A stretch of 64,000 nucleotides of DNA from Leucoraja ocellata (GCA_036785375.1 JAWMAR010000153.1:3844001-3908000), one strand, 5' to 3'; shown: positions 13,590 to 52,542, numbered from the stretch's first letter. Program-made: numbers and translations. The notes: generated by a model from the sequence alone, not told the origin.

Positions 13590-13762
13590 GTAGAGCTGGC
13601 GTAGCAGTAGAGCTACTGCCTTACCGCACCAGAGACCCGGGTTTGATCCTGACTACGGGCGCTTGTCAAAAGGAGTTTGTGCGTTCTCCCCTTGACCTGC
13701 GTGGGTTTCCTCCAAGATCTTCAGTTTCCTTCCACACTCCAAAGACGTACAGGATTGTAGGT
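13590..13762 (+). mobile_element. V-SINE 5' half split by a Penelope element (3' half at 15061-15165)
   Basis: SINE head and V-domain end at TGTAGGT; the SINE resumes with TGGTTTGGTATAAATG and ends CTAAACTAAAC. Confidence 0.8.
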
Positions 13763-15060
13763 TGTTCAAGAAGGAACTGCAGATGCTGGAAGATCGAAGG
13801 TACACAAAATTGCTGGAGAAACTCAGCGGGTGCAGCAGCATCTATGGAGCGAAGGAAATAGGCGACGTTTCGGGCCGAAACCCTTCTTCAGACTGATGGG
13901 GGGTGGGGGGGAGAAGGAAGGAAAAAGGGAGGAGGAGGAGCCCGAGGGCGGGGGGATGGGAGGAGACAGCTCGAGGGTTAAGGAAGGGGAGGAGACAGCA
14001 AGGGGTGGCAAAATTGGGAGAATTCAACGTTCATGCCATCAGGACGCAAGCTGCCCAGGCGGAATATGAGGTGCTGTTCCTCCAATTTCCGGTGTTGCTC
14101 ACTCTGGCAATGGAGGAGACCCAGGACAGAGAGGTCCGATTGAGAATGGGAGGGGGAGTTGAAGTGCTGAGCCACCGGGAGTTCAGGTAGGTTATTGCGG
14201 ACTGAGCGGAGGTGTTTGGCGAAACGATCACCCAACCTCCGCTTAGTCTCCCCGATGTAAATCAGTTGACATCTAGAGCAGCGGATGCAGTAGATGAGGT
14301 TGGAGGAGATACAGGTGAACCTTTGTCGCACCTGGAACGACTGCTTGGGACCTTGAATGGAGTCGAGGGGGGAGGTGAAGGGACAGGTGTTGCATTTCTT
14401 GCGGTTGCAATGGAAAGTGCTCGGGGAGGGGGTGGTACGGGAAGGAAGGGAAGAATTGACAAGGGAGTTGCGGAGGGAGCAGTCTTTGTGGAAGGTAGAC
14501 ATAGGGGGAGATGGGAAGATGTGGCGAGCGGTGGGGTCACGTTGGAGGTGGCGGAAATGGCGGAGGATTATGTGTTGTATTTGCCGGCTGGTGGGGTGAA
14601 AGGTGAGGACCAAGGGGACTCTGCCCTTGTTGCGAGTGTGGGGATGGGGAGAGAGAGCAGTGTTACGGGGTATGGATGAGACCCTGGTGCGAGCCTCAAC
14701 TATGGTGGCGGAGGGGAATCCCCGTTCCCTGAAGAACGAGGACATTTCCGATGCCCTGGTATGGAATGTCTCATCCTGGGAACAGATGCGGCGTAGGCGG
14801 AGGAATTGAGAGTAGGGGATGGAGTCTTTACAGGGGGCAGGGTGGGAAGACGCGTAATCCAGATAGCCATGTGAGTCAGTTGGTTTGTAGTGTATGTCGG
14901 TTAGAAGTTTGGCCCCTGCGATGGAGATGGTGAGGTAAAGGAATGGTAAGGAAGTGTCGGAAATGGTCCAGGTGTATTGGAGTGCCGGGTGGAAGTTGGT
15001 GGTGAAGTGGATGAAGTCAGTCAGTTGTGCAGGAGGTGGCCCCAAAGCAGTCGTCAATGT
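13763..15060 (-). mobile_element. Penelope-like element, 5'-truncated (RT C-terminus plus GIY-YIG endonuclease)
   Basis: ORF 13978-15132 has YKPTDSHGYLDYASSHP, IPYSQFLRLRRICS, C..KKC.TC, NLIYCIRCSRCQLIYIGETKRRL.DRF.KH and GMNVEF; terminus carries a hammerhead-like motif; inserted in a V-SINE. Confidence 0.92.
13864..13891 (-). ncRNA. Minimal type I hammerhead ribozyme motif at Penelope terminus
   Basis: Reverse complement CTGAAGA-A-GGG(TTTCGG)CCC-GAA-ACGT-C: CUGANGA box, stem II, GAAA box, palindromic ACGU stem III and UH site. Confidence 0.75.
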
Positions 15061-16755
15061 TGGTTTGGTATAAATGCAATGGTGTGTGTTGGATAGTGTT
15101 AGTGCGTGGTCAGTGCAGCCTCGGTGGGACAAAGGGCCTCGTCCGATCTCTAAACTAAACTAAATTCACAATCCACGAACTTGAACACTCTATTGAAATT
15201 TAACTACTAGGTAAAAAGGTCTCATGAGAAAGAGGTACAAAGTGCTGGAGTAACTCAGCAGGTCAGGCGTTATCTCTTGTAAACATGGAGAGGCACCGAT
15301 TTGCATTGGGACCCTTCTTCGGACTGATTGTGGTGAGAGGTAGGGGAGAAAGCTTGAAGAGAGGAATTGAAGGACAAATGTAATATATGAAATTATTAGA
15401 GGCACTGATAGAATAAACCTTTTGGGATGGAAAAATCGGACACTAGAGGGCCTAGCTTTAAGGTGAAAGCAAAACTTTAAAGGAGATATGCGGGTCAGGT
15501 TTTTTTACACAGATTGTGGAACGTGCTGCCAGGGTTGGTAGTTGAGTCTGATACACTAGTAGCATTGAAGAGACTTGGATAGATTTATGGATATCAGCAA
15601 CTGGAGGGATATGAATTATGTGCAGGTGGATAAGGAACCTGGCACCATGTTCGGCACAGATATTGTGGGCCGATGGGGCTGATCCTGTGCTGTACTGTTC
15701 GATGTAAGTGCAGCTCGATTGCAGACATTACTTTTTGATGAGACATTCAAGTAAGGCACAATTTGCTTCCTCAACTAGATGTGAAATATAACCATAGATA
15801 CAGCTTGAACAAGAACTGTGGAGTTTATCCCTGTGCGTCAGTCAATATTAACCTTCAATAAACAACTAAAAAGAACAAATTATGTAGTCACTATCACATT
15901 GGAAACTTGCTGTGACCAAATTAGCTTCCAGGTGTCCCACAACAGCCATCGAAAAACATTTAATTGGCCACAGGCATTTTGGAATGCGCTGTGGCCATGT
16001 CGAGTATTATGTGCTTACAAATCCTTATTTCAATTTCCCCCCAGGATCAGAAAACAAAAAGAAGTAGGCTTGGGAATATCTTGTCTACAAATAATAAATA
16101 ATAGGTTGTGCAGTCATTTAGAAAGAATGATAGACACAAAATGCTGGAATAACTCAAAAGGTCAAGCAGTATCTCTGGAGAAAAGATAATAGGTGACGTT
16201 TCGGTTTTGCAATGAACCAGAGACTTATTTTTTGTCTATCTTCAGTATAAATCAGCATCTGCAGTTCCTTCCTACACCTTGAAATGATGGTTTATTTTAG
16301 GTATTGTCACCTGTACCAAGGTACAGTTCAAAGCTTTATTTTGCCTGCTGTAAAATCAAATCAGATAATACCTGTACATGAATATAATCAAACCAAACTC
16401 AACTATAGTAGGTAGAGCAACAACAAAGATATAATATGTAGAATATAGTTCTCAGCATTGTAACATAATAGTCCAAAAGAAAAAGTCCAATGTCCGCAAG
16501 GAGGTATAGAAACATGGAACTGCAGATGCTGGTTTAAAAAAAAAAAAGACACAAAGTGCTGGAGTAACTGACCTGCTGAGTTACTCCAGCACGTTGTGTC
16601 TGTAATGAGGTATAATGGAGAATTGGAACTGCGTCCTAACTTATGGAGGGACCATTCAGAAGCCTGATAAGAACTGATAACATGTAGCTACCAAGGGGAT
16701 AGTAATGAAGTTAAAATGGAGTCATTATCCTTGTACCCATTACGTTCCAATTTAT

Positions 16756-17822: not shown

Positions 17823-17991
17823 GCGACTTTCTTGTGTGTTACCTGACCAGTGGAGAATCAATACAGCGTTTTGACGCCAAACTCCTTGCTGTTGTTTCTT
17901 TATGTCTGCGATCATCTGCAACATTTAAGGAGCGGCGGGAAACAAATATGCCTGGTTGTGTCTGAAGCTAACTAGGAGAGATTTCATAGAC

Positions 17992-18811
17992 ATGGAACTG
18001 GATATTACGTGGCCTGTGGAAATGAGCCTGGTAGACATCACCAAGATATTTTCCATGCTCCAGCCCAGAGATGAAGAAGATGAGAATGGGGAAATAGGTC
18101 AGCTGAATCAAGCAGTCTCGAATGACGATGACAAACTGTTAGCTGGACTTTTATCCCAGGAGAGGTATGCTAGATTTATCAATAGCCGGAGTGGCTGGGG
18201 TGTCCCAGGGACCCCTCTACGTTTAGCAGCCATGGGAGGCCAACTGAAATGTCTGGAGGTCCTCCTGGCTCATGGTGCCAATGTGGACAGTTTGGATGTG
18301 AAGGCACAAACCCCATTGTTCACTGCTGTTAGTGGCAGGCATCTAGACTGTGTCCAGGCATTGCTCAGGGCTGGAGCTGATCCTAACGGCAGTCGACACA
18401 ACAACAGCTCACCGATTCTGATCGCTGCCAGAGAAGGAGAGGTGGAGATATTGAGGGAACTGTTGGAACATGGAGCAGAAGTCAATGTCCGTTCCAAAGC
18501 ACCCGACTGGGCCTCCAATCCCTGTGCGTGCAGTGGTCCTCTCTACATCTCTTTGGTATATGGACACTTTGACTGCTTTCGCCTTCTTCTTTTGCATGGA
18601 GCTAACCCAGATTTTAATTGCACCGAGGAAAAACTGCTGTCACGAATCAAGTCACGCAAGACTGCACTGGAGATGTGTTTCAGATATGGTTGTGGGACAG
18701 AGTATGTGCAGCTGCTCATAGACTTTGGAGCAAATGTTTATTTACCCGATCTCCCTGCAAACAAAAATATACACCAAAATGAAGTATTTAAACTTATAAA
18801 TAGTACCAGAG
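17992..18811 (+). CDS. ASB12: Ankyrin repeat and SOCS box protein 12, first coding exon (ankyrin repeats); alternative start ATG at 18022
   Basis: MSLVDITKIFSMLQP...FINSRSGWGVPGTPLRLAA...DSLDVKAQTPLFTAVS is the ASB12 signature; multiple ankyrin repeats; donor AGAG|gtaagc at 18811/18812. Confidence 0.95.
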
Positions 18812-20539
18812 GTAAGCAAAAGATTTATTGTTTTTGTTATGTCAACTTGATTATTTAAGGTTGTAAAGCTGCTGTCTCACAGCACCAGAGACACAGGTTC
18901 GATCCTGACCACCGATGCTGTCTGTATGCAGATTGTACATTCTCGCTGTGACCGCGTGGGTTTCCTCCGGGTGCTCCGGTTTCCATCCATATCCCACGTG
19001 TAGGTTTGTAGGTTAATTGGTCTCTGCAAAAAAGTGCCTTAAATTGCAGGGTGTGGAATCGGTGGGTCGATGGACCTGTTTCCATGCCGAATCTCTAAAC
19101 TAAATTAAACTCAACCAAAAGCAAAAATAGTCCTTTAAACTAAGTATATTGTTTCATTCAAGGAAGGGAGCACTATCCAGAGTTGCTGCCTGAGCCGCTG
19201 AGTTATTCCAGCAATTTGTGTCAGTCTGTAGATTAAGTGTGTGAGGGCAAAATTGTTGCAGCTGTAAGTTAAAGTGAAGAAATGTGAGGGTGTGCTCAGA
19301 AATGAAACATAAAAGCATCTTTCTAAAAATGTAAAAACTAGGAACTAAAGGAAGATTTATGTATTATCCTCTAGAAATTACTAAGAGCTAGTGTACAGAT
19401 ACTCAAAAATAAATTGAAAGGCTAATGCTTCATTGAATTGTACCTCAAGAGACCGGAATACCATGTGTGTGAATTAAGATTTAGCTGCTTAAAGCTTTCG
19501 TTAATCATATTAATTTCTGCAACCAAACCTCAGGATCTGTTAAAAAAAAAAGGCTCAAAGTCTTCTCATCGAGCCCACACACAAGAATAAAAGTTGTTCA
19601 GCCAGAGCTGAACACATTTCTCGGCATCTGCACACAACGGTGTCTGTCTTGTCGTTTCTTGTGCTTCTTGTGCGTGGTGGTGGAAAGATTGGTGGAAACA
19701 GGGGCCGCGACGTGAACGCTCTTTCCTTGACCCCAGGCTCAAATGCTGGAGTAACTCAGCGTGTCAGGAAGCATTTCTGGAGAGCATGGACTGTACCTAC
19801 AGTATGTTCTCCACTGATGCTGCCTGACTTGCTGAGTTACTCCAGCACTTTGTGCCTATTTGGTAAACCAGTATCTGCAGTTCCTTGTGTCTCAGGAGAT
19901 GTAACTGCTTTAGAAAGGGCGTGGTACAGATTTACAGAAAAGACTAAAAAGGGTTAGATTATGGGGTAATGCAATCACAGTGTTAAGTATACTAAAGGGA
20001 TATGAAAGGGCAGATTGAAATAAATTGTTTCCGCAAAAAAGTGGGGAAGTTCAGAATAAGGCGACATAAAATGAGAACTAGTCTGTTCAGAGATGGTATC
20101 AGGGATGGTATCACTTTACGATTAAGAACGTTTGCTTTCTGGAATGTTGGCCTTAGATTAATCAAAATTTCAAAACTGAAATTTATAACATTTCTTTATA
20201 AAGACGTACAGGTGTGTAGGTTAATTGGCCTCTGTAAATTGCGCCTAGTGTGTAGGAAGTGGATGTGAATGTAAGATAACATAGAACTGATGTGCGCTGG
20301 TGGTAGATGGTCACTGGGTACTCAGTGGGCTATAGGTCCTGTTTCCATGCTGTATCTATCAATCGATCAGCCAATCAATTGCTATTGACCCTCATCTCAA
20401 CTTCAGGCCAAGATGAAACACCAATAACCTAAAACTCTCATTATTAAACCTGTGTCCAGTATAGAAGAGAGAAAACGGAGAACTTTATGTTGAACAAATG
20501 TGGTTTTTACTGTCAAAATAATTTCATTTAGTTTGGTTT

Positions 20540-23119: not shown

Positions 23120-23862
23120 GTCATCATAATCATATTTTATTAGCCAAGTATGTTTTGCAACATAGGAGGAATTTCATTTGTCATACAGTCATATCAATAA
23201 CAGCAACAGAACACACAAAATACATTTTAACATGAACATTCACCCCAGTGACTCCTCCGCATTCCTCACTGATGGAAGGCGAAAAAAGTTCAATCTCTCC
23301 CTTCTTTGTTCTCCCGTGGTCGGGTGCCTCTAACCTTCCGTTGACGGGACGATCTTACTCCCATAGCCGGCGGTGGGCTTTCCTCGTCGGGGCGATCAAA
23401 CTCCTGCATCGGGGGGGAATCTCAGATCGGCACGCTGGGCGATCTACCCTGGGTCGGGGCTAGTCGAACGTTGTGCGTCGTTTGGAGCTTCCCGATGCCG
23501 GTCTCAACCCGAGACTGCGAGCTCTCGATATTGAAGTCCGCAGGCCGCGGTTGGAGCGCCAAAAGGCAAGGGATCCGACCCAAAGGTAAGTCCATGTCCC
23601 CGTGGTGGGGCTCAAAGTCAGTACCGGGCAAGGCCTCCAGCTCCACGATGCTAGGTTCACAGGGCCGGAGATATGATCCGGAAAACAATCGCATCTCCGG
23701 CTAGGTAAGAGAATGAAAAAAGTTCCCCCCTCCCTCACACGCCACATAAAACAAATTAGATAACATTAACATAAACTTTTAAAACATACTAAAAATACCA
23801 AAAAAAGATGAAGAGGACAGACAGACTTTAGGCGAGGCTGCCATCGAAGCGCCACCCGGTGG
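23120..23862 (-). mobile_element. Non-coding interspersed repeat with a Rex1-like 3' tail (related copies at about 36535-36825 and 62940-63198)
   Basis: Shared blocks AACAT.CACC.CAGTG...CCTCACTG..GGA.GGC in all three copies; GGCGAGGC.GC.AT...GCGCCACC.GGTG shared with the 62940 copy. Confidence 0.6.
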
Positions 23863-24925: not shown

Positions 24926-26609
24926 CTTCTGATTCTCTAGTTCTGATCTCCCAACCCACCTCGGATTGGGCTTGCTCTTTTTTTGCTTATCTACAGTTTC
25001 TCTGTAACTAATGGTTCAATGCTCTGGCACTATATTTTGCAGAGTGGCATTTTATTCTGTTTGTGCTACCTTTTGTATTTGTCTATTGCTTGATTGTGCT
25101 CATATATAATACGATTTGGCTGTTTTTCACCACGTCTCAGTACCTGCCACAATCAGAAAAGAAAAAATGAAGAAAAAATAAACCTTCTAAGTTCTGAGTA
25201 GCTAAAGAGAAATTGTTGAAGTCTGATCCCTATCATTAATTAAGTTAATGTTATCATTTGATCCCAGCACAAAGTACACATTTCAAAGTGATTCATTTCC
25301 ACTCATTGAAGTGATGACTACATCAGGTGGAGTGAGAACTGGGGTTATTATTAATCTTGCGGTTAAACTCAAACGAAGGGAAATCTAATCATGACATTAT
25401 TCATTTGCGGAACCCTATCCAATATTGGAAAAAATCCAATATTTTCTGATGAAATAATCCATCTATATTTTCCAGTAACATTTCAATGTGTAAACTAACA
25501 TATTTGTGCTAATGCAAATCATCAAAGGGGAAAGAGCTCTCTGACGTGGATAAATAGCTCCTGTAAAGTGTGGGCAAACAATTCCTTGGATCAGCAGTGT
25601 AATTATACCCAAGGCCTGCACAGTAGAATTGATGTAATCAGCACCTGGTTGATAAATAAGAAGTCGGCATACAGCAGGTTGTTCTGCATCTGCTATATAA
25701 TTGTGTAGAATTATATTGACATTTCAAACATCTGCCTTGATTCCCAGTTCATATATACAGGCTAATTACCTAAATGAAGAAATATAATTAAAAATCTAAA
25801 TGCTGGTAGTCTGAAACATAGAAAATATTAGAGGCACTCAGCTCAGTGGAAAGAGAAAGGGTTGCTGGTATACAGAAATAATTTTGTGTCTCTTGAGCTT
25901 AATATTTAGTTTAATTTAGTTCAATTTAGAGATATAGCATGGAAACAGGTCCTTCTGCCCACCAGATCCACACTACCCATCGATCTCCCATTCACACTTA
26001 TACGCACACACTCCCTACGTGCTAGGGACAATTTACAGAGGCCAATTAACCTACAAACCCACGTATCTTAAAAGACTAAAAGCTGATTAAATACAGCTAA
26101 GTGGAAGTAGAGGCATAGAAACATAGAGAAACAGGTGCAGGAGTAGGCCATTCGGTCCGAGCCAGCCCCACCATTCAATATGACCATGGGTGATCATCTA
26201 AAATCAGTATCCCATTCCTGCTTTTTCCCCATATCCCTTGATTCCTTTAGCCCAAAGAGATAAATCTAACTTCCTCTTTAAAACATCCAGTGAATTGGCT
26301 TCCACTGCCGTCTGCGGAAGAGAATTCCACAGATTCACAACTCTCTGGGTGAAAAGGTTCGATTTATTACAGACAATAGTCAATAGGTGCAGGAATAGGC
26401 CATTTGGTGTTTGTTTGTGTATAATTACATCTTCTCGAAAAAAATGACAGGCTAACGGTAAAATTTGTACATATTCCGACATTTCCCCCCTGGAGTCCAA
26501 AATCGCCTTATCTGAAAATGTCTTGCTTTATTTCTCGAGTTATTAATGAAAATCTTCAAAAATCTGACACTTTGAAGTCTACGCCTTCTTGCTCGCGCTG
26601 CGAGTGTCG

Positions 26610-26915
26610 TCCCCCCACCCACCCCTCTCTCCTCCTTTGGTTGACCCCCACTGCCCGCTCTCCATTGCCTGCTCCCTGCTGCTCTCCCCTCCCCCCTCTC
26701 CTCACTGCCCCCTCCTCTCCCCCCTCCACTCCTTACCCCCCTCCTCTCCTCCTTCTCCTCTCCCCTCCCATCCACTCCCCCGTCCTCTCTCCTCTCTCCC
26801 CCTCTCCTCTCCCCTCCCGGCCTCTCTCCTCCCCCCCCCCCCACCAACTCCTTTCCCCTCCCCTCCTCTCCCCTCACCTCCACTTCCCCCCCTCCCCTCC
26901 ACTCCCCCCTCCCCC
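26610..26915. repeat. C/T-rich low-complexity tract
   Basis: Direct reading; it produces the spurious Pro-rich and Gly-rich ORFs in the track. Confidence 0.9.
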
Positions 26916-26929
26916 AGTCGCCACGCCAG

Positions 26930-27284
26930 CATCATCCCAGGGTGCACAAATAACAACGCCAGCAGCGCCCTGGTGATGCAGGATTGCGGCGCTCACACTC
27001 TGACCTCCGCTGTCGCTTCTCCTGAGCCTGCTCGGGTTGGACAGTTTCTTCGAACACTGCGGACTCGAGCCCGAGATGATCGAGAACCCGGCCAGGGAGA
27101 AATTTGCAGCCGACGCCGCCTTCGAAAGCCTTGCTGTCAAGTTTCGCAGCCGCTCCAGTGGATGAACAAGCTCCTGGCCTCTGCCCTCTCGGTCATCGAG
27201 CGCAACGCCAGGGTCATCCAGTGGCTGTACGGCTGCAAGAGGGCCAAGGAGCCCAACGGCAAGGCTCCCTCTGGCCTGGTGTAG
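26930..27284 (+). pseudogene. Decayed fragment of a FAM110-family gene (C-terminal conserved domain, FAM110D-like)
   Basis: Three consecutive frames give GLRRSHSDLRCRFS*ACS / LDSFFEHCGLEPEMIENPAREKFAADAAFESLAVKFRS / LSVIERNARVIQWLYGCKRAKE...*, matching the FAM110 motifs RS.SD, FF..CGL.PE, FRS and ERNAR.I.WLY. Premature TGA at 27023 and frameshifts near 27036 and 27150. Confidence 0.8.
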
Positions 27285-27384
27285 AATAAAAAAATATTGT
27301 GCCCCCATTTTTTTACTCTGGATTTTTTTTTACTATGGAAAAAAAAGGTGCACCCATTGCACCCCCCCCTTCCGATGGCCATGC

Positions 27385-28450
27385 ACATGGTATTGGCAGT
27401 ATGGATTGAAAATTGGTTGGCAGACAGTAAACAAAGATTAGGGATTAACGGGTCCCTTTCCGAATGGCAGGCAGTGACTAGGGGGGTACCGCAAGGCTCA
27501 TTGCTGGGACCGCAGCTATTTACAATATACATCAATGATTTAGATGAAGGGATTCAAATTTGCAGATGACACAAAGCTGGGTGGCAGTGTGAACTGTGAG
27601 GAGAATGCAATGAGAATGCAGGGTGACTTGGACATGTTGGGGGAGTGGGCAGATCATGGCAGATGAAGTTTAATGTCGATAAATGTGAGATTATCCACTT
27701 TGGTTGCAAAACCAGGTAGGAAGATTATTATCTAAATGGTGCCAAGTTGGGAAAAGGGGAAGTAAAATGGGATCTGTGGGTCCTTGCTCATCAGTCAATG
27801 AAAGTAAGCGAATGGCATGTTGGCCTTCATAACAAGAGGAATTGAGTATAGGAGCAAAGAGGTCCTTCTGCAGTGGTACAGGGCTCTAGTGAGACCACAC
27901 CTGGAGTATTGTGTGCAGTTTTGGACCCCTAATTTGAGGAAGGACATTCTTGCTATTGAGGGAGTGCAGCGTAGGTTAACAAGGTTAATTCCTGGGATGG
28001 TGGGACTGTCATATGCTGAGAGAAAGGAGCGTCAGGGCACGTATACTCTGGAATTTAGAAGGATGAGAGGGCATCTTATTGAAACATAAGATTATTAAGG
28101 GTTTGGACATGCAAGAGGCAGGAAACATGTTCCCGATGTTGGGGGAGTCCAGAGCCAGGGGCCACAGTTGAAGTATAAGGGGTAAGCCATTTAGAACGGA
28201 GATGAGGAAACACTTTTTCACACAGAGAGTTGCAAGTCTGTGGAATTCTCTGCCTCAGAGGGCGGTGGAGGCCGGTTCTCTGAATACTTTCAAGAGAGAG
28301 CTAGATAGGGTTCTTAAAGATAGAGGAGTCAGGGGATATGGGGAGAAGCAGGAACGGGGTACTGATTGGAAATGATCAGCCATGATCACATTGAATGGCG
28401 GTGCTGGCTCGAAGGGCCGAATGGCCTACTCCTGCACCTATTGTCTATTA
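27385..28450 (+). mobile_element. CR1 LINE 3' portion (RT and 3' UTR), decayed
   Basis: [41 protein letters not shown]; tail GGCCGAATGGCCTACTCCTGCACCTATTGTCTATT. Confidence 0.9.
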
Positions 28451-32189: not shown

Positions 32190-32730
32190 TGCTCCCTGCG
32201 TGCAAGGAAAGCCCGCCCACCCACCGCGCGCGTCGCCAGCAAGGATCCTATAGGATGTCTGGTCGTCAGGTCCTGGGCCTGGCGGAGGCCGGCCGGGAGT
32301 AACCGGGCCTGTGTGTCGGGGAGGCGGCGGCAGCAGCAGCAGGTGAGCGGCCTGGCCCGGCCTGTCCTGTCCCGGTGAGAGCGGGGTTGCGCCGCCGCCG
32401 CGCTGGTTCCAGTGCCGGGGGGTGGGTGGGGGTTGTCGACGGGGCGGGGCTGAAGGAGAAGGAGGGAGAGAGTGAGGGAGAAAGAGAAGAAGGGGAAAGG
32501 GAAAGAAAGAGGAGAGAGAAGCAGGGGAAAGAGAAGGGGAAAGAAAGAGGAGAGAGAAGAAGGGGAAAGGGGAAGAAAAACAAGAGAAGGGAGAGGGAGG
32601 AGAAGAAAAAAGAAAGGAGGAGGGAGAAAGGGGAAAGAAGGAGCTGGAGCTGGGTCGGGCCCAGAGCCGGGCAGTGGCTGGGAGCGGTGCCGTGTAATGA
32701 GTGAGGCGCCGACCGGGGCTCTGCAGGTGA
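32190..32730 (+). promoter_or_regulatory. AMER1: CpG island with probable AMER1 promoter and non-coding first exon(s)
   Basis: CpG-rich, non-repeat-like GC segment with a GC box (GGGGCGGGGC near 32441); strong donors CAG|GTGAGC (32342/3) and CAG|GTGAGT (32726/7); matching acceptor at 44266 before the AMER1 ATG. Confidence 0.6.
32452..32643. repeat. Homopurine (GA-rich) tract
   Basis: About 190 bp that are almost exclusively G and A. Confidence 0.9.
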
Positions 32731-35010: not shown

Positions 35011-36528
35011 GAGGTACAGTGTGTTCTGCGTAGGATCAATCCACGCAAGGCTGCAGGCCCGGATGGAGTACAGGGAAGAGTACTAAAGGACTGTGCTGTA
35101 CAGCTGGCGGAGGTATTCACGAGAATCTTCAATCTATCTCTATCTCTGGCAACGGTCCCCAAGTGCCTGAAAACAGCTACCATAGTGCCGGTGCCGAAAA
35201 AGTCCAAAGTCACCAACCTGAACGACTACCGCCCGGTTGCCCTAACTCCAATACCAATGAAGTGCTTCGAAAGGCTGGTCCTCTCCCATATCAAATCCAG
35301 CATCCCTGCCTCACTGGACTCTCATCAATTTGCATGCAGGGCAAATAGATCAACAGAGGATGCCATCTCTCTGGCTCTTCACACTGTCCTGACTCACCTG
35401 GACCGACAGGGAACGTACGTGAGGATGCTCTTCGTTGACTATAGCTCTGCATTCAATACGGTCATCCCCACCAAACTCCACCAGCTAGGCCTCAGTTCGC
35501 CGATATGCGATTGGATCCTGAACTTTCTGATGGAGCGACCGCAGGCAGTGAGATTGGGCCCGCACCTGTCCTCCACTATCACCCTGAGCACCGGCACACC
35601 ACAAGGCTGTGTACTAAGCCCCATGCTCTACTCCCTCTTCACTCACGACTGTGTTCCTGCATTCGACACCAACACCATCGTGAACTTTGCAGACGACACA
35701 ACAGTGATTGGGCTGATCACCAATGGTGATGAAACAAAATACAGAGCGGAGGTGCAGAACCTGGCGGACTGGTGCACACGTAACAACTTGTCACTAAACA
35801 CCTCCAAGACCAAGGAGCTGATTATTGACTTCAGGAAGTCCCATAATGGAGAATACGCCCCAATCTCCATTTACGGGGAAAGTGTGGAGAGAGTGTCCAG
35901 CTTTAAGTTTCTGGGCACTCACATTTCAGAGGACCTCACATGGTCCACCAACACCGCTGCACTGGTCAAGAAGGCACAGCAACGACTGTTCTTCCTGAGG
36001 ACATTAAAAAAGACACGTCTGCCCCAACAGCTGCTGACAACGTTCTACCGCTGCACCACAGAGAGCATATTAACGTATGGCATCTCTGTGTGGTATCTCA
36101 TCTGCACGGAGGCGGAGAGGAGACCTCTTCAGCGCGTCGTCCACAGAGCGCAGAGGATCATTGGGACAGAGCTACCAGCCTTGGAGGGCATCTACCACAC
36201 ACGGTGCCTCAGGAAGGCCGTCAGCATCCATAAAGACTCATCACACCCCTGTAACAGACTGTTCGAACTACTTCCCTCCGGCAGACGTTACAAGGTCTTC
36301 TACGCCCGAACCTCCAGACTCAGAAACAGCTTTATTCCAAGAGCTATAGCGGCTCTGAACCAGCGCTGCTGAGTGCCCCCCCCCCCCCCCCCCCCGGACT
36401 GTCTCCCTCGGATGGTCACGACACACAGCTTATTTATTTATTTTACTTTTCTTTTTCATCGGTTGGAGCTGCATACTAAATCTCGTTGCACTGACGTGCA
36501 ATGACAATAAAAGATATTATTATTATTA
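35011..36528 (+). mobile_element. Rex1/Babar-clade LINE, 5'-truncated, RT frame open 35011-36372
   Basis: [52 protein letters not shown] and SFIPRAI; 3' end GACAATAAA plus (TTA)n; nested in a CR1 fragment. Confidence 0.92.
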
Positions 36529-39104: not shown

Positions 39105-39284
39105 GCGGCGGCGCAGAACTGAGTTGCTGCCTTACAGCGCTTGCAGCACCGGAGACCCGGGTTTGATCCCGACTATGGTTGGTATCTGTACGGAGTTTGT
39201 ACCTTCTCCCCGTGACCTGCGTGGGTTTTCTCCGAGACCTTTGGTTTACTCCAAAGAGGTACAGGTATGTAGGTAAATTGGCTT
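39105..39284 (+). mobile_element. V-SINE 5' half split by a Penelope element (3' half at 41898-42020)
   Basis: Ends TGTAGGTAAATTGGCTT; resumes TGGCTTGGGAAATGTAAATTGTCCC...GGCCGAAGGGCCTGTTTC...CTAAAC. Confidence 0.8.
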
Positions 39285-41897
39285 AGACAAAAATGCTGGA
39301 GAAACTCAGCGGGTGAGGCAGCATCTGTGGAGCGCAGGAAATAGGCAACGTTTCGGGTTGAGACCCTTCTTCAGACTGTTGAGAGGGTGGGGAGGGGGGT
39401 AGAAGAAAGGAAGAAGCGGAGACAGTGGGCTGAGGGAGAGCTGAGAAGGGGAGGAGAAAGTAAGGACTACCTGAAATTGGAGAAGTCCATGATCATACTG
39501 CTGGGGTGTAAACTGCCCAAGGTGCTGCTTGAGGTGCTGCTCCTCCAATTTACGGTGGGCCTCACTCTGGCCATGGAGGAGGCCCAGGACAGAAAGGTCG
39601 GATTCAGAATGGGAGGGGGAGTTGAAGTTTTGAGCCACTGGGAGATCAGGTTGGTTAATGCGAACTGAGCGGAGGTGTTTGGCGAAGCGATCGGCAAGCC
39701 TACGCTGGGTCTCACCGATGTAGAGCAGTTGACACCTAGAGCAGCGGATGCAATAGATGAGGTTGGAGGAGGTGCAGGTGAACCTCTGCCGCACCTGGAA
39801 AGACTGCTTGGGTCCTTGAATGGAGTCAAAGGGGGAGGTAAAGCGACAAGTGTAGCATTTCCTGCGGTTGCAAGGGAAAGTGCCAGGAGAGGGGGTGTTT
39901 TGGGTGGTCTGGGACGAATTAACCAGGGAGTTATGGATGGAGCGGTCTCTGTGGAAAGCAGCAAGGGGAGGAGACGGGAAGATGTGGCCAGTGGTGGGAT
40001 CCCGTTGGAGGTGGCGTAAATGTCGGAGGATTATTTGTTGTATGTGACGGCTGGTAGGGTGGAAGGTGAGGACAAGGGGGAGTGAGAGCAGAGTTACGGG
40101 GTATAGAAGAGACCCTGGTGAGAGCCTTATCTATAGTAGAAGAGGGGAACCCCCGCTCCCTGAAAAATGAGGACATCTCCGATGCCCTGGTGTGGAACAC
40201 CTCATCCTGGGAGCAGATGCGAAGTAGACTGAGGAATTGGGAGTAGCGGATGGAGTCCTTACAGGAAGCAGGGTGGGAAGAAGTGTAGTGGGTTCATAGT
40301 GTCAAGTCAAGTTGTCACATTTATTTATATAGCACATTTAAAAAACAACTCTCGTTGGCCAAAGTGCTTTACATTTGTTATAAGAATAGCACAATAGTGG
40401 ATGTCGGTCAGGAGTCTATCACCTGCGATGGAGATAGTGAGGTCTGGAAATGGTAGGAAAATGTTGGAAATGGTCCAGGTGTATTTGAGTGCCAGATGGA
40501 AGTTAGTGGTGAAATGGATGAAGTCAGTGAGTTGTGTGTGGGTGCAGGAGGTAGCACCAGTGCAGTCGTCAATGTAGCAGAGGTTGGGGATGGGGCCCTG
40601 GTACGCCTCGAACAAGGATTGTTCGATGTACCCTACAAAGAGGCAGGCATAGCTAGGGTCCATAGCCACGCCTTGTATTTGGAGAAAATGGGAGGAGTCA
40701 AACGAAAAGTTATTGAGGGTAAGGACCAGCTCCGCTAGGCGGAGGAGGGTATCAGTAGATGGGGATTGGTTGGTTCTGCGGTCAAGGAAGAAATGGAGGG
40801 CTTTAAGACCCTCCTGGTGGGGGATGGAGGTGTAGAGTGACTGGACGTCCATGGTGAAGATGAGGGAATGGGGGCCTAGAAAACGGAAGTCCTGGAGAAG
40901 ACGAAGAGCGTGTGAGGTGTCTTGAACGTAGGGAGGGATTTGACCAGGGGAGGAAATAGGATGGTCGAGGTATGTGGAAATAGGTTCGGTGGGCCAAGAA
41001 CAAGCAGAAATAATGGGTCTGCCAGGACACTCAGGTTTGTGGATTTTGGGGATAAGGTAAAATCGGGTCGTGCGGGGCTGGGGAACGATGAGGTTGGAGG
41101 CTTGGGAGGGCAGGGAGCCGGAAGTGATGCAGTCAGTGATAGTGTTAGAGATCATGGCCTGGTGCTCGTCTGTGGGGTCATGGTCCAAGGATAAGTAGGA
41201 GGAGGTGTCTGAGAGTTGGCGCGTGGCCTCAGCCTTGTAGAGATCAGCGCGCCAGGGGGGGGGGCGAGGGCTCCTTCCCATGGACAAACGCTTTGATGCG
41301 GAGGCGACGGAAGAAGAGCTCCACATCGTGGTGGATGCAGAACTGATTGAGGTGAGGACGGAGGGGAACAAAGGTGAGGCCTCTGCTGAGGACAGACCAT
41401 TCAGTATGAGAGTGGGGAAGGTCATAGGAGATGGTGAACACACGGCAAGGATGGGGGTTGGAGCCGGAGGATGGGGGGGTGGTGGGTGGTCAGGGAGGAA
41501 GGTGGTATGAGGACCATAGTGTGGGTGAGGAGGACCTGGGGCCATATGGTTTGAGGGGGAAGGGGGAGTCCCAGTGGAACAACCACTGAGGTTTCCGGTG
41601 TTAGTTGGGACGAGCACTAGGACCCAGCACAGTCAGATCCCGTGAAGTCAGGGTCTGCAGCGTGAAGACTTCAGGCCCGGTGCTGAGCCTAGGACTCGGG
41701 TAAGGCGACGGCTGTGGCCTGCTGGAGAGCAGTGGAGCGGCGAGGATCAGGAGAGTTGATGGTGGAGGCCCGCGGGGAGTGGAGTCCGGGTCAGCGGGCA
41801 AAATGTAGGAGGTCCCGGATGGCCGGTGAGGCAGTGAGGTTTGACTGTCCTGGTGAGGCGTAGAGGTTCGACTGGCCCGTTGAGGCGGAGAGGTGAG
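39285..41897 (-). mobile_element. Penelope-like element, longer decayed copy (RT plus GIY-YIG, frameshifted)
   Basis: Fragments LSRGLTFVP, FYLIPKIHKPECPGRPIIS, TMDVQSLYTSIPH, YIDD and NLIYCIRCSRCQLLYIGET; TGGCTT duplicated at 39279-39284 and 41898-41903; interrupted near 40295-40395 by a short unrelated LINE/SINE tail. Confidence 0.92.
39347..39374 (-). ncRNA. Minimal hammerhead ribozyme motif at Penelope terminus
   Basis: Reverse complement CTGAAGAAGGGTCTCAACCCGAAACGTT. Confidence 0.7.
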
Positions 41898-44375
41898 TGG
41901 CTTGGGAAATGTAAATTGTCCCTAGTGTGTGTAGGATTGTGTTCATGTGCAGGGATCGTTGGTCAGTGCAGACTCGATGGGCCGAAGGGCCTGTTTCTGC
42001 GCCGCATTTCTAAACTAAACGAAGGCCACAGTTGCAAGGTTAGCCACGGTTCGGGGAGGGTTCAAAGCGACCACTTTGTCGAAGCCAAGTGTATTCCCCT
42101 ATTTGAAGTAACTCACAACTGCCCCCTTCCTCTAGTACGCCCCTGAACCCCAGCTAGCTTTGGGCTGGTTTCTCCCCTTCATCTTCCCCTGCACAGTTTC
42201 CAATTCGTAACTTTTTTATCCCTGCACTTAATAATTCGCAACTCTTCTCGGGCTTGCACCTATCTTTTCATCTCTGGCCTTTGTCCAACAATCTGCCTAA
42301 CAAAATATCCCCCTGGCTTGTGTTCATCGATTACCGGCCATGCTCTCTCCTGCACCTTCTCTTTCCAAGTTTTCCTTCCTGCTCCCCTGCAGTCAGTGAA
42401 GAAGGGTTCCAACTCAAAGTGTCGTCTCCAGAGACGTTGCCCGAGCCGCTGAGTTACACCAGCGCTTTGGGACTTTCTTCTTGTAGCCAATGCTCTGCCC
42501 GATAACGGTAAACATGCCTCATACCATCACCTTTGCCACCTTCAGGGAATTTACGAGAGTCAAATGAGCAGTATGACTATCTGCTAACAGACAAAATTCC
42601 AATTTTTTTTACATTGCTTGGTAAATTTATGTGGCACTTTATGCAAGAAGTCAAAGGCAGGCACAGGTTTCAGTTGAAGTTAGCTGAGACAGCAAAAATT
42701 TGGATGAGGCAACACAGGCATAATTCTATTCTTTAGTTTAGTTTCGAGCTACAATGTGGAAACTGCCTGCGGCCCACCAAGTCCATACTATCCATTGATC
42801 ACCTGTACACTAGTTCTATGTCCTACACCCGAGGGGCAATTTACAGAAGCCACTTAACCTGAAAACTTGCACGTCTTAGAAGGAAAAAGGCGCACCTGGA
42901 GCAAACACACTTGGTCAGAGGGAAAACGTACAAACTACATACAGACAGCACAGGTAGTCAGGATTGAATCCGGGTCACTGGCGCTTTGAGGTTAACAGCT
43001 TTACAGCTGCGCTACAGTGCCATTCCATTTTGGTCACATTACATATATTTACGTAATAAATTCTCACACTCACACTCGCACACACACACACACAGTGATG
43101 GGAGGAATGAAAATAAGTTATTTTTTTTATCGCGTGCAAATTAGCTTGCTGCACAACGATGTAAATCAGGCAAATTAGATTTTTATCTTGCACTAAACAT
43201 TATTCCCTTATCATATATCTGTACACTGTGGATGGCTCGACTGTAATCATGTATTGTCTCCGCTGAATGGTTAGCACGCAACAAAAGCTTTTCCCTGTAC
43301 CTCGGTACACGTGGCAATAAACTAAACTAAATAAACTAAACTGAACTAAAACTGATGGAGAAAAAAAGTTCCAGAAAATGTTGGAAAAAATCGTAGGTTC
43401 GCATTGCTGGCTGTTACTGGGTTGCAACATTCCAACTGGGAGCAAAGACAAACAGCGAGTTTGATTGAAGATGAAACGCTGGATGATTCTGTTGCCAGCC
43501 AAGCTAGAGGCCAGTTATTTGCACCTTTTTGTGAGCCTGCACTGAGGTTCTTTGCATGTGGTGAAATTGCTGGATTGTGGATACGTACACATTGGGGTGA
43601 ATGAATCTTGTTGCAATAATTTAGGTCTGGTAATTCATCTTTGAGGCACCCTTTTAATGTTGTGATTTATGGTCCCAATGTTTCCCACAACCACGTTGCT
43701 CCGGCAAAGGAAACAATGAAGCTGTGGAGAATCGCACTTTTAGGTTGAGACACATTGGATCGGATTCTTTGTTAATGTATTTTCCTCTCTCTCTCTCTCC
43801 TTTTTTATCTTTGTGTGCTCACGAGTGACTTTTGTATACGATTATCCATTTTTAGCTATTGAAAGCCTGCATTTTAGCAACACCTGATGTCCTGCATTTA
43901 ATGTGTTTAGAAATTTCCCCAAATTTTTTCTCGCGATGCATCTTTGTAAACAGCTCAGCCCAGTCAGTGCCACAAGTTGCTTGTAAGCTGACCGGAAGAT
44001 TTAAAAAAATTATTTGATTTGCATTTAAAATGTCATTATCTTTCCTTTGTTTTCTGTTGGTTGGTAATCTTCGATTAAATTATTGTATTCCTTTACCCCA
44101 ATGAAGGGAATTGCAACTTAGGACAAATTTGCTCAATAATTTGACCACACTCTAAAGTTGCCTGTGAAAGTTAAATTATGTTTGCAGCCACTAATAGTCA
44201 GTCAGATAATAACATAAAGTTTTTCCACCTTTGTTTAGAACCTGATTTTCTCATTTTATGTTTCAGGATGATAATGGTTGAGCAGGTATACGCCAGACTT
44301 TGCGGTGCTGATGTGGGTCGATGTGCGATTGATCCAATTTTCAGCTGATTGCACCTGTATTTGGACACAGTTGCC

Positions 44376-47300
44376 ATGGAAACCGGCAGCAGTGCGGAGA
44401 CGGCTGGAACAAAGGCTTTGTCTCCTGGCCGTGGGGAAGTTGCCAGAGGGATCCAGACCCAGGGAGCAGCTGTTCCCGCACCGTACGACTGTGCTGATGC
44501 CACTGACACCGAGCAATCTTCCGGGAAGCTGAGGAAAACGGCATTTAAGCTGTTTGGAGGACGGAAGAGCATTTGCACACTACCGAGCTTTTTCACTATT
44601 AAGAACAAAGGACAAGTAAAGGGATTCTCCAAAAAGGGAGTCGCTAAAAGCAAAACTCTCAATGGCATAAGTGAAGTGGCTTTGGACGTTAACCAAAAAG
44701 AAGGGCTCGATACCGCGTGGAGCGGATGCCATGATTCGTCCAGCTGGAGCTCCGTGGCGTCGAGAACCTTGCGCGGCTCAAAGAGCGAGCACTGTGCACT
44801 TGACAACAATGTCCAGTGCGACTTCCGCAAAAGTGAATCCCTAGAGTCGGAGAACACTAAATGCTTCGTTCCCAAGGGAAGCGCTGACAAGCCCCTGGCT
44901 GAGCGGAGGTCGAAGAAGGGCCTGAGGGGTCTCTTTAACAGCATCAGGCGTCATAGAAAGAACAAAGCTGTTGATTCGGCTAAAGGAGATCCACAGGGCA
45001 GTAACCATGCTGCTGCCGCTGGGGTTCTTGCACACGCAGAACAAACGACAGCACACCGAGGAGTGGGGGTCGAATATAAGAAGGGTTTGGTGGAACTAAA
45101 TCTGAAGCCTTCATGTAAAATGAACTGTGCAGGAACAGGTGACTCTGTGGATAAAGCTGAAACCGCAAACAGTACAAGTTCTTCCCCTGAATCATGCGCT
45201 TTCAAAGTCGATAAACCCTCCAGAAATAAGAGGAGTGAGTTAGAGACATCGGGTACAGAGGTAAGGAAAATCAATGTCGGTGAATGTAAGGCACAAAATA
45301 GGAAGCCTGGTGGTGCTATTTCTAATCTGAACTCCAGTTTTGGTAGCATGCCTGATATTGTAAAACCTACTTGCATAGATCGTGACCCACCATCTGTGCA
45401 TTCTTTTGATCAGGCCAGCTTGATTTTTGGTGATGTGACTTCACTGAAGAGCTTCGATTCCCTGACGGGTTGTGGGGATATTATTGCCGACCACGACGAC
45501 GATAGTATTGCCGAAAGCACGGTGTCGGGAGAGAGGAGTAGAGCGGCGGGGAAACGGAGCTCTTGCTTGGTCACTTATCAGGGTGGCGGGGAAGAAATGG
45601 CAACTCCCGACGAGGTGGAGGATGAGTATCTTAAAGTGCTGTGGGAGAAAGCGACAGGGACGGGTGCCATGTTTGACAGCAGCCAGAATATAGCCGAGGA
45701 TGGCGGCGAGTGCTTGCGGTCGCCCAGTGATGCGGAGCATTCGGCCCTGCATATTAACTTGTCGGATCCTTGTTCGCTGCGTGGGATCACCGATAGTGCA
45801 ATCAACAGCAGCGAACTGGTGACGCCGCAGAGCGACCATCAGGAGTCGGCGCCAAACAGCGATGAAGGTTATTATGACTCCACCACCCCAGGGCATGATG
45901 AGGAAGGAGGAGACAGTATTAGCGAAAGCAAAAATGACCGACTTCCAAGGGACAGCTACAGTGGCGACGCCTTGTATGAACTTTTTGAGCAGAATGATAG
46001 TCTTATAAACTCCCCTCCAAGTGATGAGCATTCTTTGGAAACCAAGCCACCTTCTTTGGGTGCCTCACTTACATCCATTTTAAGTTTTTCCTTACCAGTG
46101 GACACAAATGTCCCTTGTATTCCAAGTAAGCAAAGCATTATGATTCCTTCAGAACAAGAGAAATGTTATTTTATTCAGGAAGATGAAATCAAATTAGATC
46201 ACCTACAGCAGCAACTAACATGTTGGGAGTCGGATGGGAAAATGATGTTCGTGAAAGACCCATCCATGAGGGGAAAGGAAAGATTCTCGGGTGATCTACT
46301 TGAGACCGAATTTAGTAAAACGGGCACAGATGCTGTGGGCGTCATTGCTAAAAATCAGCAAACTGCTGTGAACACAGAACCACTTATTTCAAGTAACGTG
46401 AGCAAAACTGGGAAGACAAAAGTTGAGTACTTGTCTGAGGCAGCTGATGGGCAGAACTGGGCGAAACTCCAAAGAGTTTGTCCAAAGGAAAATGATAATA
46501 AATACCTGATGTGTAAGCGGAACATGTGTGAGAATTACAACATATCAAAACTTCACAATATATCAGGAGCAGGGTGTACACAAGAATACAGCAATGAAAA
46601 CTGTGGTGAGTGGGGTCAAGAAGTGAAAAATTGTGAGGATCAAAATATGAAGAAAATAGTCCAGAACAATGGAATGGTTGATGGTTTAAGTGAAAGTTCC
46701 TCTGACTATCGAGAGATGGGAAAGGCTGAGGAGAATTTTGAACAAGCTATCAACTACTCGCAGGCTTTAGTTGAATTCACAGCCAACAGAAAACTTTATC
46801 CCAATCTTTCTGAAAGCCTTGGGAATTCTGACTCTGGGTCGCTGGCAGAGGATATGCATGCTCTGCCGGCAATGGTAACGTTTGACGTCGTTGATGTTGA
46901 GAACGAGGAGGAATGCGACCAGCAGAGTGAAATGGTCACGGACGAAGAGATCTCTGCATCTTACGAGGCCTTTGATGACAGTTACTTGGAGAAAGATCCC
47001 TACCACCATTGCGACGACAGAATGTTTCAGAGCTGTGCCCAGAATTCTTCGCTTGCAGTTTGCTGGGGAGTTGCCAGTCTTCCAAGGCACAGTAGCCTTT
47101 ACAAACTAAATCCTTCATTGCCTTCTCCATTATCACTTAGCAAAAGGAGCAGGTCCCTAGACACCGACAGCTTGGAATCTGAACTCACTGATTTGTATCT
47201 GTCAAAGGTCACTGCAACATCAAAGAGCACCCCGCAGTCTCCCGATGTTCCTCCCTATGAATGGGATGGCAGGAAAGCTTCCGCTTGTCACTGGCTTGGC

Positions 47301-47741
47301 AAAAGAACTGGTCCGCTGGCTTCCTCGGAAGCCCCAGAGGCTGTATATGACTTGCGACGGTCGGGGCAGCAACTGGTCCAATACAGGGAGGAACCCGTGT
47401 CTTTGGAGAAGAAAAAAGCAGCATTTAATTCTTTCTGCCCCTCAGAGTCAGACTTGGATAAGCTGCATTCTAATCAGTCTGGAGATTTGAGTTTACAATG
47501 TAAATCTAATTCAGTTAAACAGACAGCTCAACACCAGTCTACTAGTAAAAGGAATCTGGAACCTGTAATTAAGAATAAAATGCCTCACAATTCAAGGAAA
47601 TTGGTTAGGCCCTCTCACCTTCCATTGGAAAATGATGATTGTGTGTTGCAGACTGGTTCTTTTAGTTCTTCAAGGGAAAATACTAATGGCAAAGGGGCAT
47701 GTGTTTCCTTAAATGAAAAGGGGGGAGGAGGATTTCTGTAA
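44376..47741 (+). CDS. AMER1: APC membrane recruitment protein 1 (AMER1/WTX), single coding exon, about 1121 aa
   Basis: Kozak GCCATGG; conserved motifs KLRKTAFKLFGGRKSICTLPSFF, KKGLRGLFNSIRRHRK, FGDVTSLKSFDSLTGCGDIIA, KRSSCLVTYQGGGEEMA, PNSDEGYYDSTTPG, LPRDSYSGDALYE, LPAMVTFD and WGVASLPRH; neighbours ASB12 and MTMR8. Exon acceptor tttcag at 44266. Confidence 0.96.
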   Translation: METGSSAETAGTKALSPGRGEVARGIQTQGAAVPAPYDCADATDTEQSSGKLRKTAFKLFGGRKSICTLPSFFTIKNKGQVKGFSKKGVAKSKTLNGISEVALDVNQKEGLDTAWSGCHDSSSWSSVASRTLRGSKSEHCALDNNVQCDFRKSESLESENTKCFVPKGSADKPLAERRSKKGLRGLFNSIRRHRKNKAVDSAKGDPQGSNHAAAAGVLAHAEQTTAHRGVGVEYKKGLVELNLKPSCKMNCAGTGDSVDKAETANSTSSSPESCAFKVDKPSRNKRSELETSGTEVRKINVGECKAQNRKPGGAISNLNSSFGSMPDIVKPTCIDRDPPSVHSFDQASLIFGDVTSLKSFDSLTGCGDIIADHDDDSIAESTVSGERSRAAGKRSSCLVTYQGGGEEMATPDEVEDEYLKVLWEKATGTGAMFDSSQNIAEDGGECLRSPSDAEHSALHINLSDPCSLRGITDSAINSSELVTPQSDHQESAPNSDEGYYDSTTPGHDEEGGDSISESKNDRLPRDSYSGDALYELFEQNDSLINSPPSDEHSLETKPPSLGASLTSILSFSLPVDTNVPCIPSKQSIMIPSEQEKCYFIQEDEIKLDHLQQQLTCWESDGKMMFVKDPSMRGKERFSGDLLETEFSKTGTDAVGVIAKNQQTAVNTEPLISSNVSKTGKTKVEYLSEAADGQNWAKLQRVCPKENDNKYLMCKRNMCENYNISKLHNISGAGCTQEYSNENCGEWGQEVKNCEDQNMKKIVQNNGMVDGLSESSSDYREMGKAEENFEQAINYSQALVEFTANRKLYPNLSESLGNSDSGSLAEDMHALPAMVTFDVVDVENEEECDQQSEMVTDEEISASYEAFDDSYLEKDPYHHCDDRMFQSCAQNSSLAVCWGVASLPRHSSLYKLNPSLPSPLSLSKRSRSLDTDSLESELTDLYLSKVTATSKSTPQSPDVPPYEWDGRKASACHWLGKRTGPLASSEAPEAVYDLRRSGQQLVQYREEPVSLEKKKAAFNSFCPSESDLDKLHSNQSGDLSLQCKSNSVKQTAQHQSTSKRNLEPVIKNKMPHNSRKLVRPSHLPLENDDCVLQTGSFSSSRENTNGKGACVSLNEKGGGGFL

Positions 47742-51600: not shown

Positions 51601-51652
51601 GCAATGAATAACAGATATTCTATCTTCACTGTTCCAACATTCCTCATGTTAA

Positions 51653-52542
51653 AGCAAGTTTCTATTCATTTACTTGCAGGATACAGAACATCGGATCATA
51701 ATTTTATATTTCATAAAGAAAGCAATAATTTATTTGAAGCTCATTTAATTTTTGCTTTGCTGTAAGAAATGGTGCAGATATAACATGCAATCTAATTTAA
51801 TGCCGTCCTTAACTATCTCAAATATTACACAATTAATCTGGAACCAGTCTTGTTACAAATAATAAATCTTGGTAATATAGGGAGGGTCGATGTGATGTTC
51901 CATGTTCTGGTTCTTTGAAAGGTTCGCCTTGCTTGCGTGCTTCCCGCGTCTCCCTCAAAAAAAGTGCAATTGTAGAAATGTTGTTATGCTGTTATGCCGC
52001 AATATCTGTCCCAATTTTCAATGCATTTTGATCCAAGAAGGTGCAGTTTCACCTGCAAGTGAACCAGTTCATGCTTGACTTTCACCATAAACGGGTGACA
52101 GTTCAATTTATCTTCCGTGGTTCCATCTCCTGGGATGTGGGTACACAGTTTGCATGAATACAGTGGTAGACTATTTAATTCTGCTACTCCATTGCACATG
52201 GGTTTTTTACATCTGACGTTTTGGACAAGGTGCACGAATTGGAAAAAAATTATGAAAAATCTTGTTTAAAGTTGATGAAAAAGAAACTACGCCATTACAT
52301 GTAAAAATTAAGATGAATACGTTTTACAGTGGGTTATCTCACATATTACACAATTAATCCAGAACATGTTACTTGGGTTTTTGCAGCAAGTTTCTATTTA
52401 TTTATTTGCAAGATATAGAACATTGGATCATAATTTTATATTTCATAAAGAAAGCAATAATTTATTTGAAGCTTATTTTTGTTTTGTTGTAAGAAATGGT
52501 GCAGATATAACATGCAATCTAATTTAATTCCATCCTTAATTA
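51653..52542 (+). repeat. Pair of direct repeats of about 160 bp (51653-51815 and 52386-52542)
   Basis: GGATCATAATTTTATATTTCATAAAGAAAGCAATAATTTATTTGAAGCT and TGTAAGAAATGGTGCAGATATAACATGCAATCTAATTTAAT each occur twice. Confidence 0.85.

Follow-up and report, generated by a model that had tools for sequence, protein, structure and literature searches.

A decayed FAM110C fragment in the skate Leucoraja ocellata is probably the relic of a multicopy, hAT-type gene-carrying element

A FAM110C remnant in Leucoraja ocellata is likely to be the truncated relic of a non-autonomous hAT-type element that carried this gene, that is, of a multicopy Pack-TIR. The DNA analysed, termed the window throughout, is a stretch of 64,000 nucleotides (GCA_036785375.1, JAWMAR010000153.1:3844001-3908000), and positions are counted from its first letter (Table 1). 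The parent gene is skate FAM110C, damaged copies of which are dispersed in high number, have a common ancestry and in many cases continue past the stop codon with the same sequence as the window copy, which is itself dead and has no evident function.

Table 1. Positions of the FAM110C remnant, the right end of the putative element and neighbouring features in the window.
Feature	Position	Strand	Basis or remark
Ankyrin-repeat exon	17929-18858		upstream gene
CR1-like LINE 3' ends, two pieces in inverted orientation	26111-26358, 26373-26407	-	left neighbours
AT-rich, CpG-retaining repeat-like segment, beginning with GTTT units	26408-26600	.	CpG o/e
C/T low-complexity tract abutting the truncated FAM110C piece	26601-26913	.	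composition
Decayed 3' third of the FAM110C coding sequence	26914-27284	+	parent residues 282-439
AT-rich stretch after the stop, common to other copies	27285-27346	+	contig evidence
Right end: GC-rich hairpin and terminal inverted repeat, CATGGCCATCGGAAGGGGGGG inward from 27383	27347-27383	-	same motif starts MITEs
Expected right-hand 8-bp target duplication CACATGGT	27384-27391	+	predicted from the MITE duplications
3' part of a CR1-like LINE	27384-28449	+	RT motifs in translation; other copies in window
AMER1	44349-47741		downstream gene

Translation of the plus strand recovers all four FAM110 C-terminal motifs. RRSHSDL is followed by a TGA stop at 27023-27025, FFEHCGLEPE...KFRS spans 27034-27150 with a 1-nt deletion after 27036, and a deletion with a frameshift at about 27151-27164 leads to SVIERNARVIQWLYGC and on to the stop at 27282-27284. 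Pfam FAM110_C matches the two larger pieces (E = 2.6e-5, below the cutoff, and 3.9e-10, above it), and the 23-residue piece alone gave no Pfam match. The GC content of the fragment is 62%, versus 47% in the exons of the ASB12-like gene and AMER1. An earlier note made from the sequence had described the motifs, the stop, two frameshifts and the high GC content, as well as the lack of any N-terminal FAM110 part in the window, and the translation, Pfam search and GC count bear all of this out. The extent that it gave (26981-27284) holds at the end and has to be revised at the start: residues 282-298, 318-331, 336-374 and 401-439 of Leucoraja erinacea FAM110C align with the window at 76-93%, which moves the beginning to 26914, leaves about 19 and about 26 codons missing internally, and goes with a further deletion at about 26971-26980. 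We also considered a functional FAM110C gene and rejected it on account of the absent N-terminal part and of the stop, frameshifts and deletions; the fragment cannot encode a working FAM110C.

The translated search that the note had proposed for the parent paralogue points to skate FAM110C. Similarity to this protein reaches 85-90% over the middle piece, and a query with 27022-27162 returned eight proteins among 15 candidates, seven of them FAM110C from skates or rays and the eighth a chimeric skate model. Skate and ray FAM110C proteins, which are 367-491 residues long overall, contain an expanded, length-variable repeat of the TPAAPxGA type at about parent residues 197-300, which is absent from the two shark FAM110C proteins read.

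The annotated proteins of two skates include eight damaged FAM110C models beside the intact genes, on eight sequences, bearing in mind that a protein listing reveals only those copies that an annotator called genes. In L. erinacea, the intact gene lies on a 101 Mb sequence and the five damaged copies lie on sequences of other sizes (XP_055505700.1, XP_055498485.1, XP_055486551.1, XP_055487251.1 and XP_055522316.1, on sequences of 140, 60, 114, 170 and 0.18 Mb), and in Amblyraja radiata the intact gene is on a 116 Mb sequence and three damaged copies are on others (XP_032898069.1, XP_032904808.1 and XP_032885421.1, on sequences of 41, 31 and 66 Mb). The first Met corresponds to the start in four of the eight damaged models, residue 375 is reached in two, and the eight models and the window copy together cover the whole FAM110C reading frame. 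Since other copies begin at the first Met, the cargo of the family is the complete coding sequence, of which the window copy is a truncated relic. Two statements of the earlier note change as a result: the fragment is no orphan, given the damaged pieces on eight other sequences of two skates and the high depth in sequencing runs described below, and the idea of a captured C-terminal fragment stands as to capture and fails as to extent.

A set of gene models named 'FAM110C-like' or 'FAM110B-like' in skate annotations are probably pseudogenes. The A. radiata model XP_032898069.1 joins FAM110C pieces to a membrane protein with V-set and Ig domains and represents either a genuine chimeric transcript or an artefact of annotation. 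Intact FAM110C is annotated in three skates, and five ray species, 11 shark species and Rhinoraja longicauda each have one FAM110C among the best 120 of 402 matches. No extra FAM110C copy appeared for R. longicauda among the matches listed, though residues suggest that capture preceded its split.

Four of 24 listed public runs were aligned to 26885-27450 at 80% likeness, namely the contigs of three DNA runs from three organisms and the reads of one RNA run. Over the coding part, summed contig depth has maxima of 2738, 3487 and 17508 in the three DNA runs, against medians of 12, 16 and 41 for the long contigs listed in the same runs. The resulting ratio is 108-432 (three peaks per run), or 15-216 after a 2-7-fold correction for overlapping contigs, which is an assumption. 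Because summed contig depth is not a copy number, we keep the claim at roughly tens to a few hundred copies. Identical variants at a single site recur in up to 50, 38 and 48 contigs of the three runs, and 15 joints among contigs represent varied internal deletions in the copies, one of which, joining 26972 to 27214, is present in two organisms. Depth dips at the window copy's own deletions, to about 110 in two runs, which indicates that these deletions are private or rare. Contigs that depart from the window sequence at 26914-26920 read on as FAM110C, so the window copy was cut there. For CR1-like LINEs, depth reaches up to 2 million. A G at 27136 (Val for Leu) was tried as a mark common to the copies and discarded because the neighbouring base is unlike a CpG; the variant table behind it may give one letter per place.

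The stop codon is directly followed by AATAAAAAAA, as the earlier note had reported, and the A-run there consists of seven templated A's that lead into sequence common to other copies, not of a poly(A) tail. Among 5,506 pieces, 24 long ones were examined individually. The 3' coding part is covered by 16 of these, 11 of which pass the stop by at least 21 nt and five by at least 31 nt, with two reaching 27344-27345; two others end before the stop and three at 27286-27294. Five contigs have 31 or more letters on either side of the stop, and two diverge from the window at 27286 and 27294, with unlike sequence beyond. As many copies continue past the stop, the AT-rich stretch belongs to the repeated unit and is not a poly(A) tail. 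This stretch, which contains a 15-nt direct repeat at 27308/27325, is the subterminal region of the element or the start of the parent's 3' flank, and may thus be parental. The depth ratio after the stop (18-86, versus 108-432 at the coding peaks) implies that not all copies need carry this end.

No contig among the 24 shown of 5,506 pieces runs from the coding part through to 27383, so we infer this last link; depth and one joint, which connects 27247 to 27350, tie the last 38 nt to the coding part. Depth over the terminus amounts to 316, 1413 and 2225, below the coding peaks, and the terminus is therefore no more abundant than the gene piece, unlike what a free MITE family would give. At 27397, depth without the LINE consensus letter is 159, 211 and 440, 2-7 times lower than over the terminus, which fits most copies ending at the terminus. 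The fold of 27285-27383 beats shuffled sequences (z = -3.1), reflecting the A/T runs and the terminal hairpin.

The terminal motif is single-copy in the window. When its 21 nt were scanned in metagenome contigs, where the match to the motif itself holds by construction, 14 loci were retrieved from five insertion sites in unrelated DNA. At four of the five sites, a MITE of 170-190 bp begins precisely with the motif, contains an inverted counterpart of it and is flanked by duplicated 8-bp sequences (8/8, 7/8, 7/8 and 6/8 positions identical); here the motif constitutes an imperfect terminal inverted repeat (TIR) of a size within the short-TIR range of 10-25 bp. These MITEs lie in seemingly eukaryotic DNA inside metagenome assemblies. 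The motif was absent from viral contigs, and no transposase frame was found in the two loci examined of the 14 or in the viral contigs. Short TIRs and 8-bp target site duplications (TSDs) define hAT elements (PMC3942097). Our data accordingly favour the Pack-type half of the carrier that the earlier note had suggested, with a right end that fits a hAT-type element making 8-bp TSDs, over its Helitron half. The P and Merlin superfamilies also produce 8-bp TSDs, and either is a possible alternative to hAT.

The LINE consensus resumes exactly where the terminal motif ends, at 27383/27384, and this LINE is probably the insertion target of the element. In the window, we found no left TIR nearby (up to three mismatches allowed; three weak matches lie elsewhere), no left partner of the 8-bp duplication next to a TIR, and no upstream LINE motif of the insertion target. 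On the left, the C/T tract and the GTTT-led AT-rich segment are as the earlier note described them, as is the GC-rich end downstream. CpG o/e is 1.26 in the AT-rich segment versus 0.23 in 25150-25900; no second copy of the segment occurs in the window, and folding of 26408-26620 gave nothing above shuffles. The segment looks like another repeat; GTTT-led segments of this kind occur in Helitrons, and it may be Helitron-like. The block that the note had treated as a single element is supported from the FAM110C piece to the right terminus, and the AT-rich segment and C/T tract are at most candidate parts of it. The LINE pieces reported to flank the fragment are present on both sides, with CR1 as their presumed family.

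The fragment sits amid LINE and SINE debris between AMER1 and a gene that we take, following the earlier note, to be ASB12-like; a search with one motif found no SOCS-like exon for the latter. CpG-rich islands occur at 32201-32600 and 23201-23600, and the former, which lies some 5 kb beyond the fragment on its downstream side, is a possible AMER1 promoter. The window further contains a Tc1/mariner remnant at 53128-54746 (its inverted arms, about 220 bp long and 81% identical, enclose a transposase frame at 53482-54336 on the minus strand), two Penelope-like retroelement remnants at 13620-15159 and 39140-41632 that are 77% alike over 1.2 kb, the first with a GIY-YIG match (E = 3e-4), and a 453-codon open LINE reverse transcriptase frame at 35011-36372, the C-terminal side of which matches Pfam ALKBH8_N (E = 1.4e-18). 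A direct repeat of about 265 bp (51555-51816 and 52280-52543, 79% identity) is accompanied by a 51-bp inverted match at 52579-52628.

Among the residues that bear on the relationships of the copies, S97 is found in 6/6, Q121 in 6/6, L57 in 4/5 and W158 in 6/7 of the copies covering each site, and the three skate genes lack all four. None of the eight orthologues has L57 or W158, although W158 may be parallel CpG decay; Q121 is also the state in four of five rays and is ancestral, and the polarity of residue 97 is uncertain, as ray sequences align poorly there. A tree was built on residues 1-196 with frameshifted stretches blanked, using eight copies and leaving out the window piece, which falls outside this region. 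A branch supported at 57/75 sets the eight copies apart and one at 81/78 the three skate genes, though neither is firm; the copy clade had 85/93 in an earlier tree with six copies. Constraining the L. erinacea copies to their own gene was rejected (p-AU 0.005), and with a per-species origin rejected, copying began before the Leucoraja/Amblyraja split. It began after skates parted from other rays (branch 100/98), and it probably went through one or a few masters. Two A. radiata copies, one of them XP_032898069.1, and one L. erinacea copy have M137, T152 and L173 in common, which suggests a subfamily or orthologous insertions across two genera.

In the RNA run, of which about 5% was read and for which strand is absent, at most eight reads cover 27075-27150 and none covers 27151-27302, possibly an effect of filtering. 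About six of these reads share changes that match no annotated skate gene, a weak hint that one non-parental copy may be transcribed or read through. A bolder reading, in which a hAT-type element moved the entire FAM110C frame to hundreds of sites, well above the number for any animal Pack-TIR surveyed in PMC8277862, and some copies joined new genes or act on the parent, appears decidedly unlikely to us; it would take in the joining of a FAM110C piece to an Ig membrane protein in XP_032898069.1, and transcribed N-terminal-domain copies that interfere with the parent.

We propose that, in a skate ancestor, the coding sequence of FAM110C became the cargo of a non-autonomous transposon of the cut-and-paste type, equipped with hAT-type ends, perhaps through a template switch during DNA repair or replication or, alternatively, through capture of a retrocopy; the Met-to-stop span of the copies cannot tell a DNA template switch from an RNA step. 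Human FAM110C contains an intron near its stop codon. With transposase supplied in trans, presumably by a hAT element, the transposon would have reached tens or hundreds of sites on many chromosomes, other copies ending in the same TIR, and the copies would then have decayed as pseudogenes through CpG loss, frameshifts and internal deletions. The window copy, of which the right-hand 470 bp remain, would probably have inserted into a CR1-like LINE. A later deletion or insertion would then have taken away its left end together with the initial two-thirds of FAM110C and the LINE sequence upstream.

Helitrons have a 5' TC end and a 3' hairpin followed by CTRR, insert at A/T and leave no TSD. It is unlikely that such a rolling-circle element, with its remnant at 26408-26913, carried and amplified the FAM110C piece along with a defunct hAT end and, possibly, part of the LINE. 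The CpG-retaining, repeat-like segment and the C/T tract do adjoin the fragment, and the final 30 nt of the tract likewise reach high depth, which may be low-complexity matches; however, loose ends at 26914-26920 in other copies are FAM110C and not C/T tract, window-like depth drops across 27383, and the element stops exactly at the TIR motif. The fold search gave no Helitron end, the right end being a CATG located 20 nt after the hairpin and matching the TIR. Helitrons of bats do spread pieces of genes, retrogenes and DNA transposons in thousands of copies (PMC4224331). Mass retroposition, in which LINE machinery would have recopied FAM110C mRNA or a master retrocopy and the hAT-type end would be a separate MITE behind one copy, strikes us as very unlikely. 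Copies that run from the first Met to the stop, an AATAAA directly after the stop and the plentiful CR1-like LINEs agree with it, and an RNA step before capture is conceivable since the fungal hAT-H3 sequence came from a transcript or retrocopy (PMC6710886). Against it, a poly(A) or LINE tail is absent and the seven A's give way to shared non-A sequence, the stretch to 27345 recurs in several distinct contigs and directly adjoins the terminal block, the terminus is no commoner than the gene piece, and a per-species origin from the gene is rejected. The truncated simple retrocopy envisaged by the earlier note is likewise not supported, given the many copies and the lack of a poly(A) tail, and its preferred transposon capture is supported by the FAM110 match, the many copies, the same lack of a tail and the intact gene elsewhere.

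Segmental duplications, or a dispersed repeat block including FAM110C and a neighbouring transposon end, are highly improbable: a TIR could adjoin the parent gene, but the copies lie on eight different sequences of two species and the LINE sequence beyond 27383 is not at the family's depth. The patching of FAM110C DNA into a break at this locus with no later transposition would account for the private deletions and for the single TIR of the window copy, and single-copy gap filling is the usual origin of animal Pack-TIRs according to Tan et al. (PMC8277862); yet the family is multicopy and dispersed with a shared 3' junction, and copy number largely refutes this explanation, which we regard as extremely improbable. 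For multicopy Pack-TIRs, the same authors favour template switching followed by transposition (PMC8277862).

The copying of genes by cut-and-paste transposons is well known from plants and fungi; in animals, capture by TIR elements is regarded as infrequent and, for the most part, limited to single copies. If true, a whole vertebrate coding sequence spread to tens or hundreds of sites before skate genera split would represent a large counter-example in a slowly evolving genome, and the parent, the dated copies and several assemblies would make the capture mechanism directly testable. Skate FAM110C insertions are also possible markers for skate phylogeny. No report of the family was found in the literature searched, to which the supplements of skate genome papers, Repbase and Dfam did not belong; nothing paired FAM110C with skate, and papers pairing FAM110C with transposon concerned unrelated subjects by their listings. 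'Shark' and 'skate' are absent from the main text of PMC8277862. The skate FAM110C family is probably new, and unusually large among multicopy Pack-TIRs, a known kind of element.

Membership in the multicopy Pack-TIRs is probable: the cargo comes from an identifiable host gene elsewhere, skate FAM110C, and dispersed copies have the same chimeric structure, the stretch being shared up to 27345. Animal Pack-TIRs are most often carried by hAT elements (208/370), and 100 animal reference genomes yielded four multicopy cases (1.4%; Tan et al. 2021, PMC8277862). Multicopy examples are Pack-hAT-N8_XT of Xenopus tropicalis, in which a 291-bp piece of UTR is present three times, and Ssk-FB4 of Drosophila melanogaster, with four copies of nearly the whole gene. 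The skate family would resemble these in having host sequence within a non-autonomous TIR element on other chromosomes and, like Ssk-FB4, in carrying nearly a whole gene (PMC8277862), whereas it differs from Pack-hAT-N8_XT and Ssk-FB4 in the tens to hundreds of whole-coding-sequence copies indicated in skates. Both TIRs and the TSDs are demonstrated for the published Pack-TIRs, and the skate element is known from its right TIR alone (PMC8277862).

The metagenome MITEs are like the skate end in their terminal 21 nt, which are identical or one base off, and in a GC-rich block followed by subterminal sequence with A/T runs; unlike the skate element, they are 170-190 bp long and have no cargo, and their similarity to the window ends after 21-26 nt. 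The fungal hAT-H3 family described in Pseudocercospora fijiensis and other Dothideomycetes comprises hundreds of copies (Dhillon et al. 2019, PMC6710886), and there, as in skates, a coding sequence was amplified to dead, mostly partial copies with the parent intact. In the fungal case, unlike the skate one, a complete hAT element was identified; its capture via a transcript was shown by exon junctions, and its copies were killed by RIP, whereas skate copies were killed by CpG decay and deletion (PMC6710886). Bat Helitrons amplified host gene pieces to a total of 12,382 copies (Thomas et al. 2014, PMC4224331). They are rolling-circle elements without TIRs or TSDs that mostly took promoters and 5' pieces, and they resemble the proposed skate element as vertebrate DNA transposons that raise host gene pieces to high copy number (PMC4224331).
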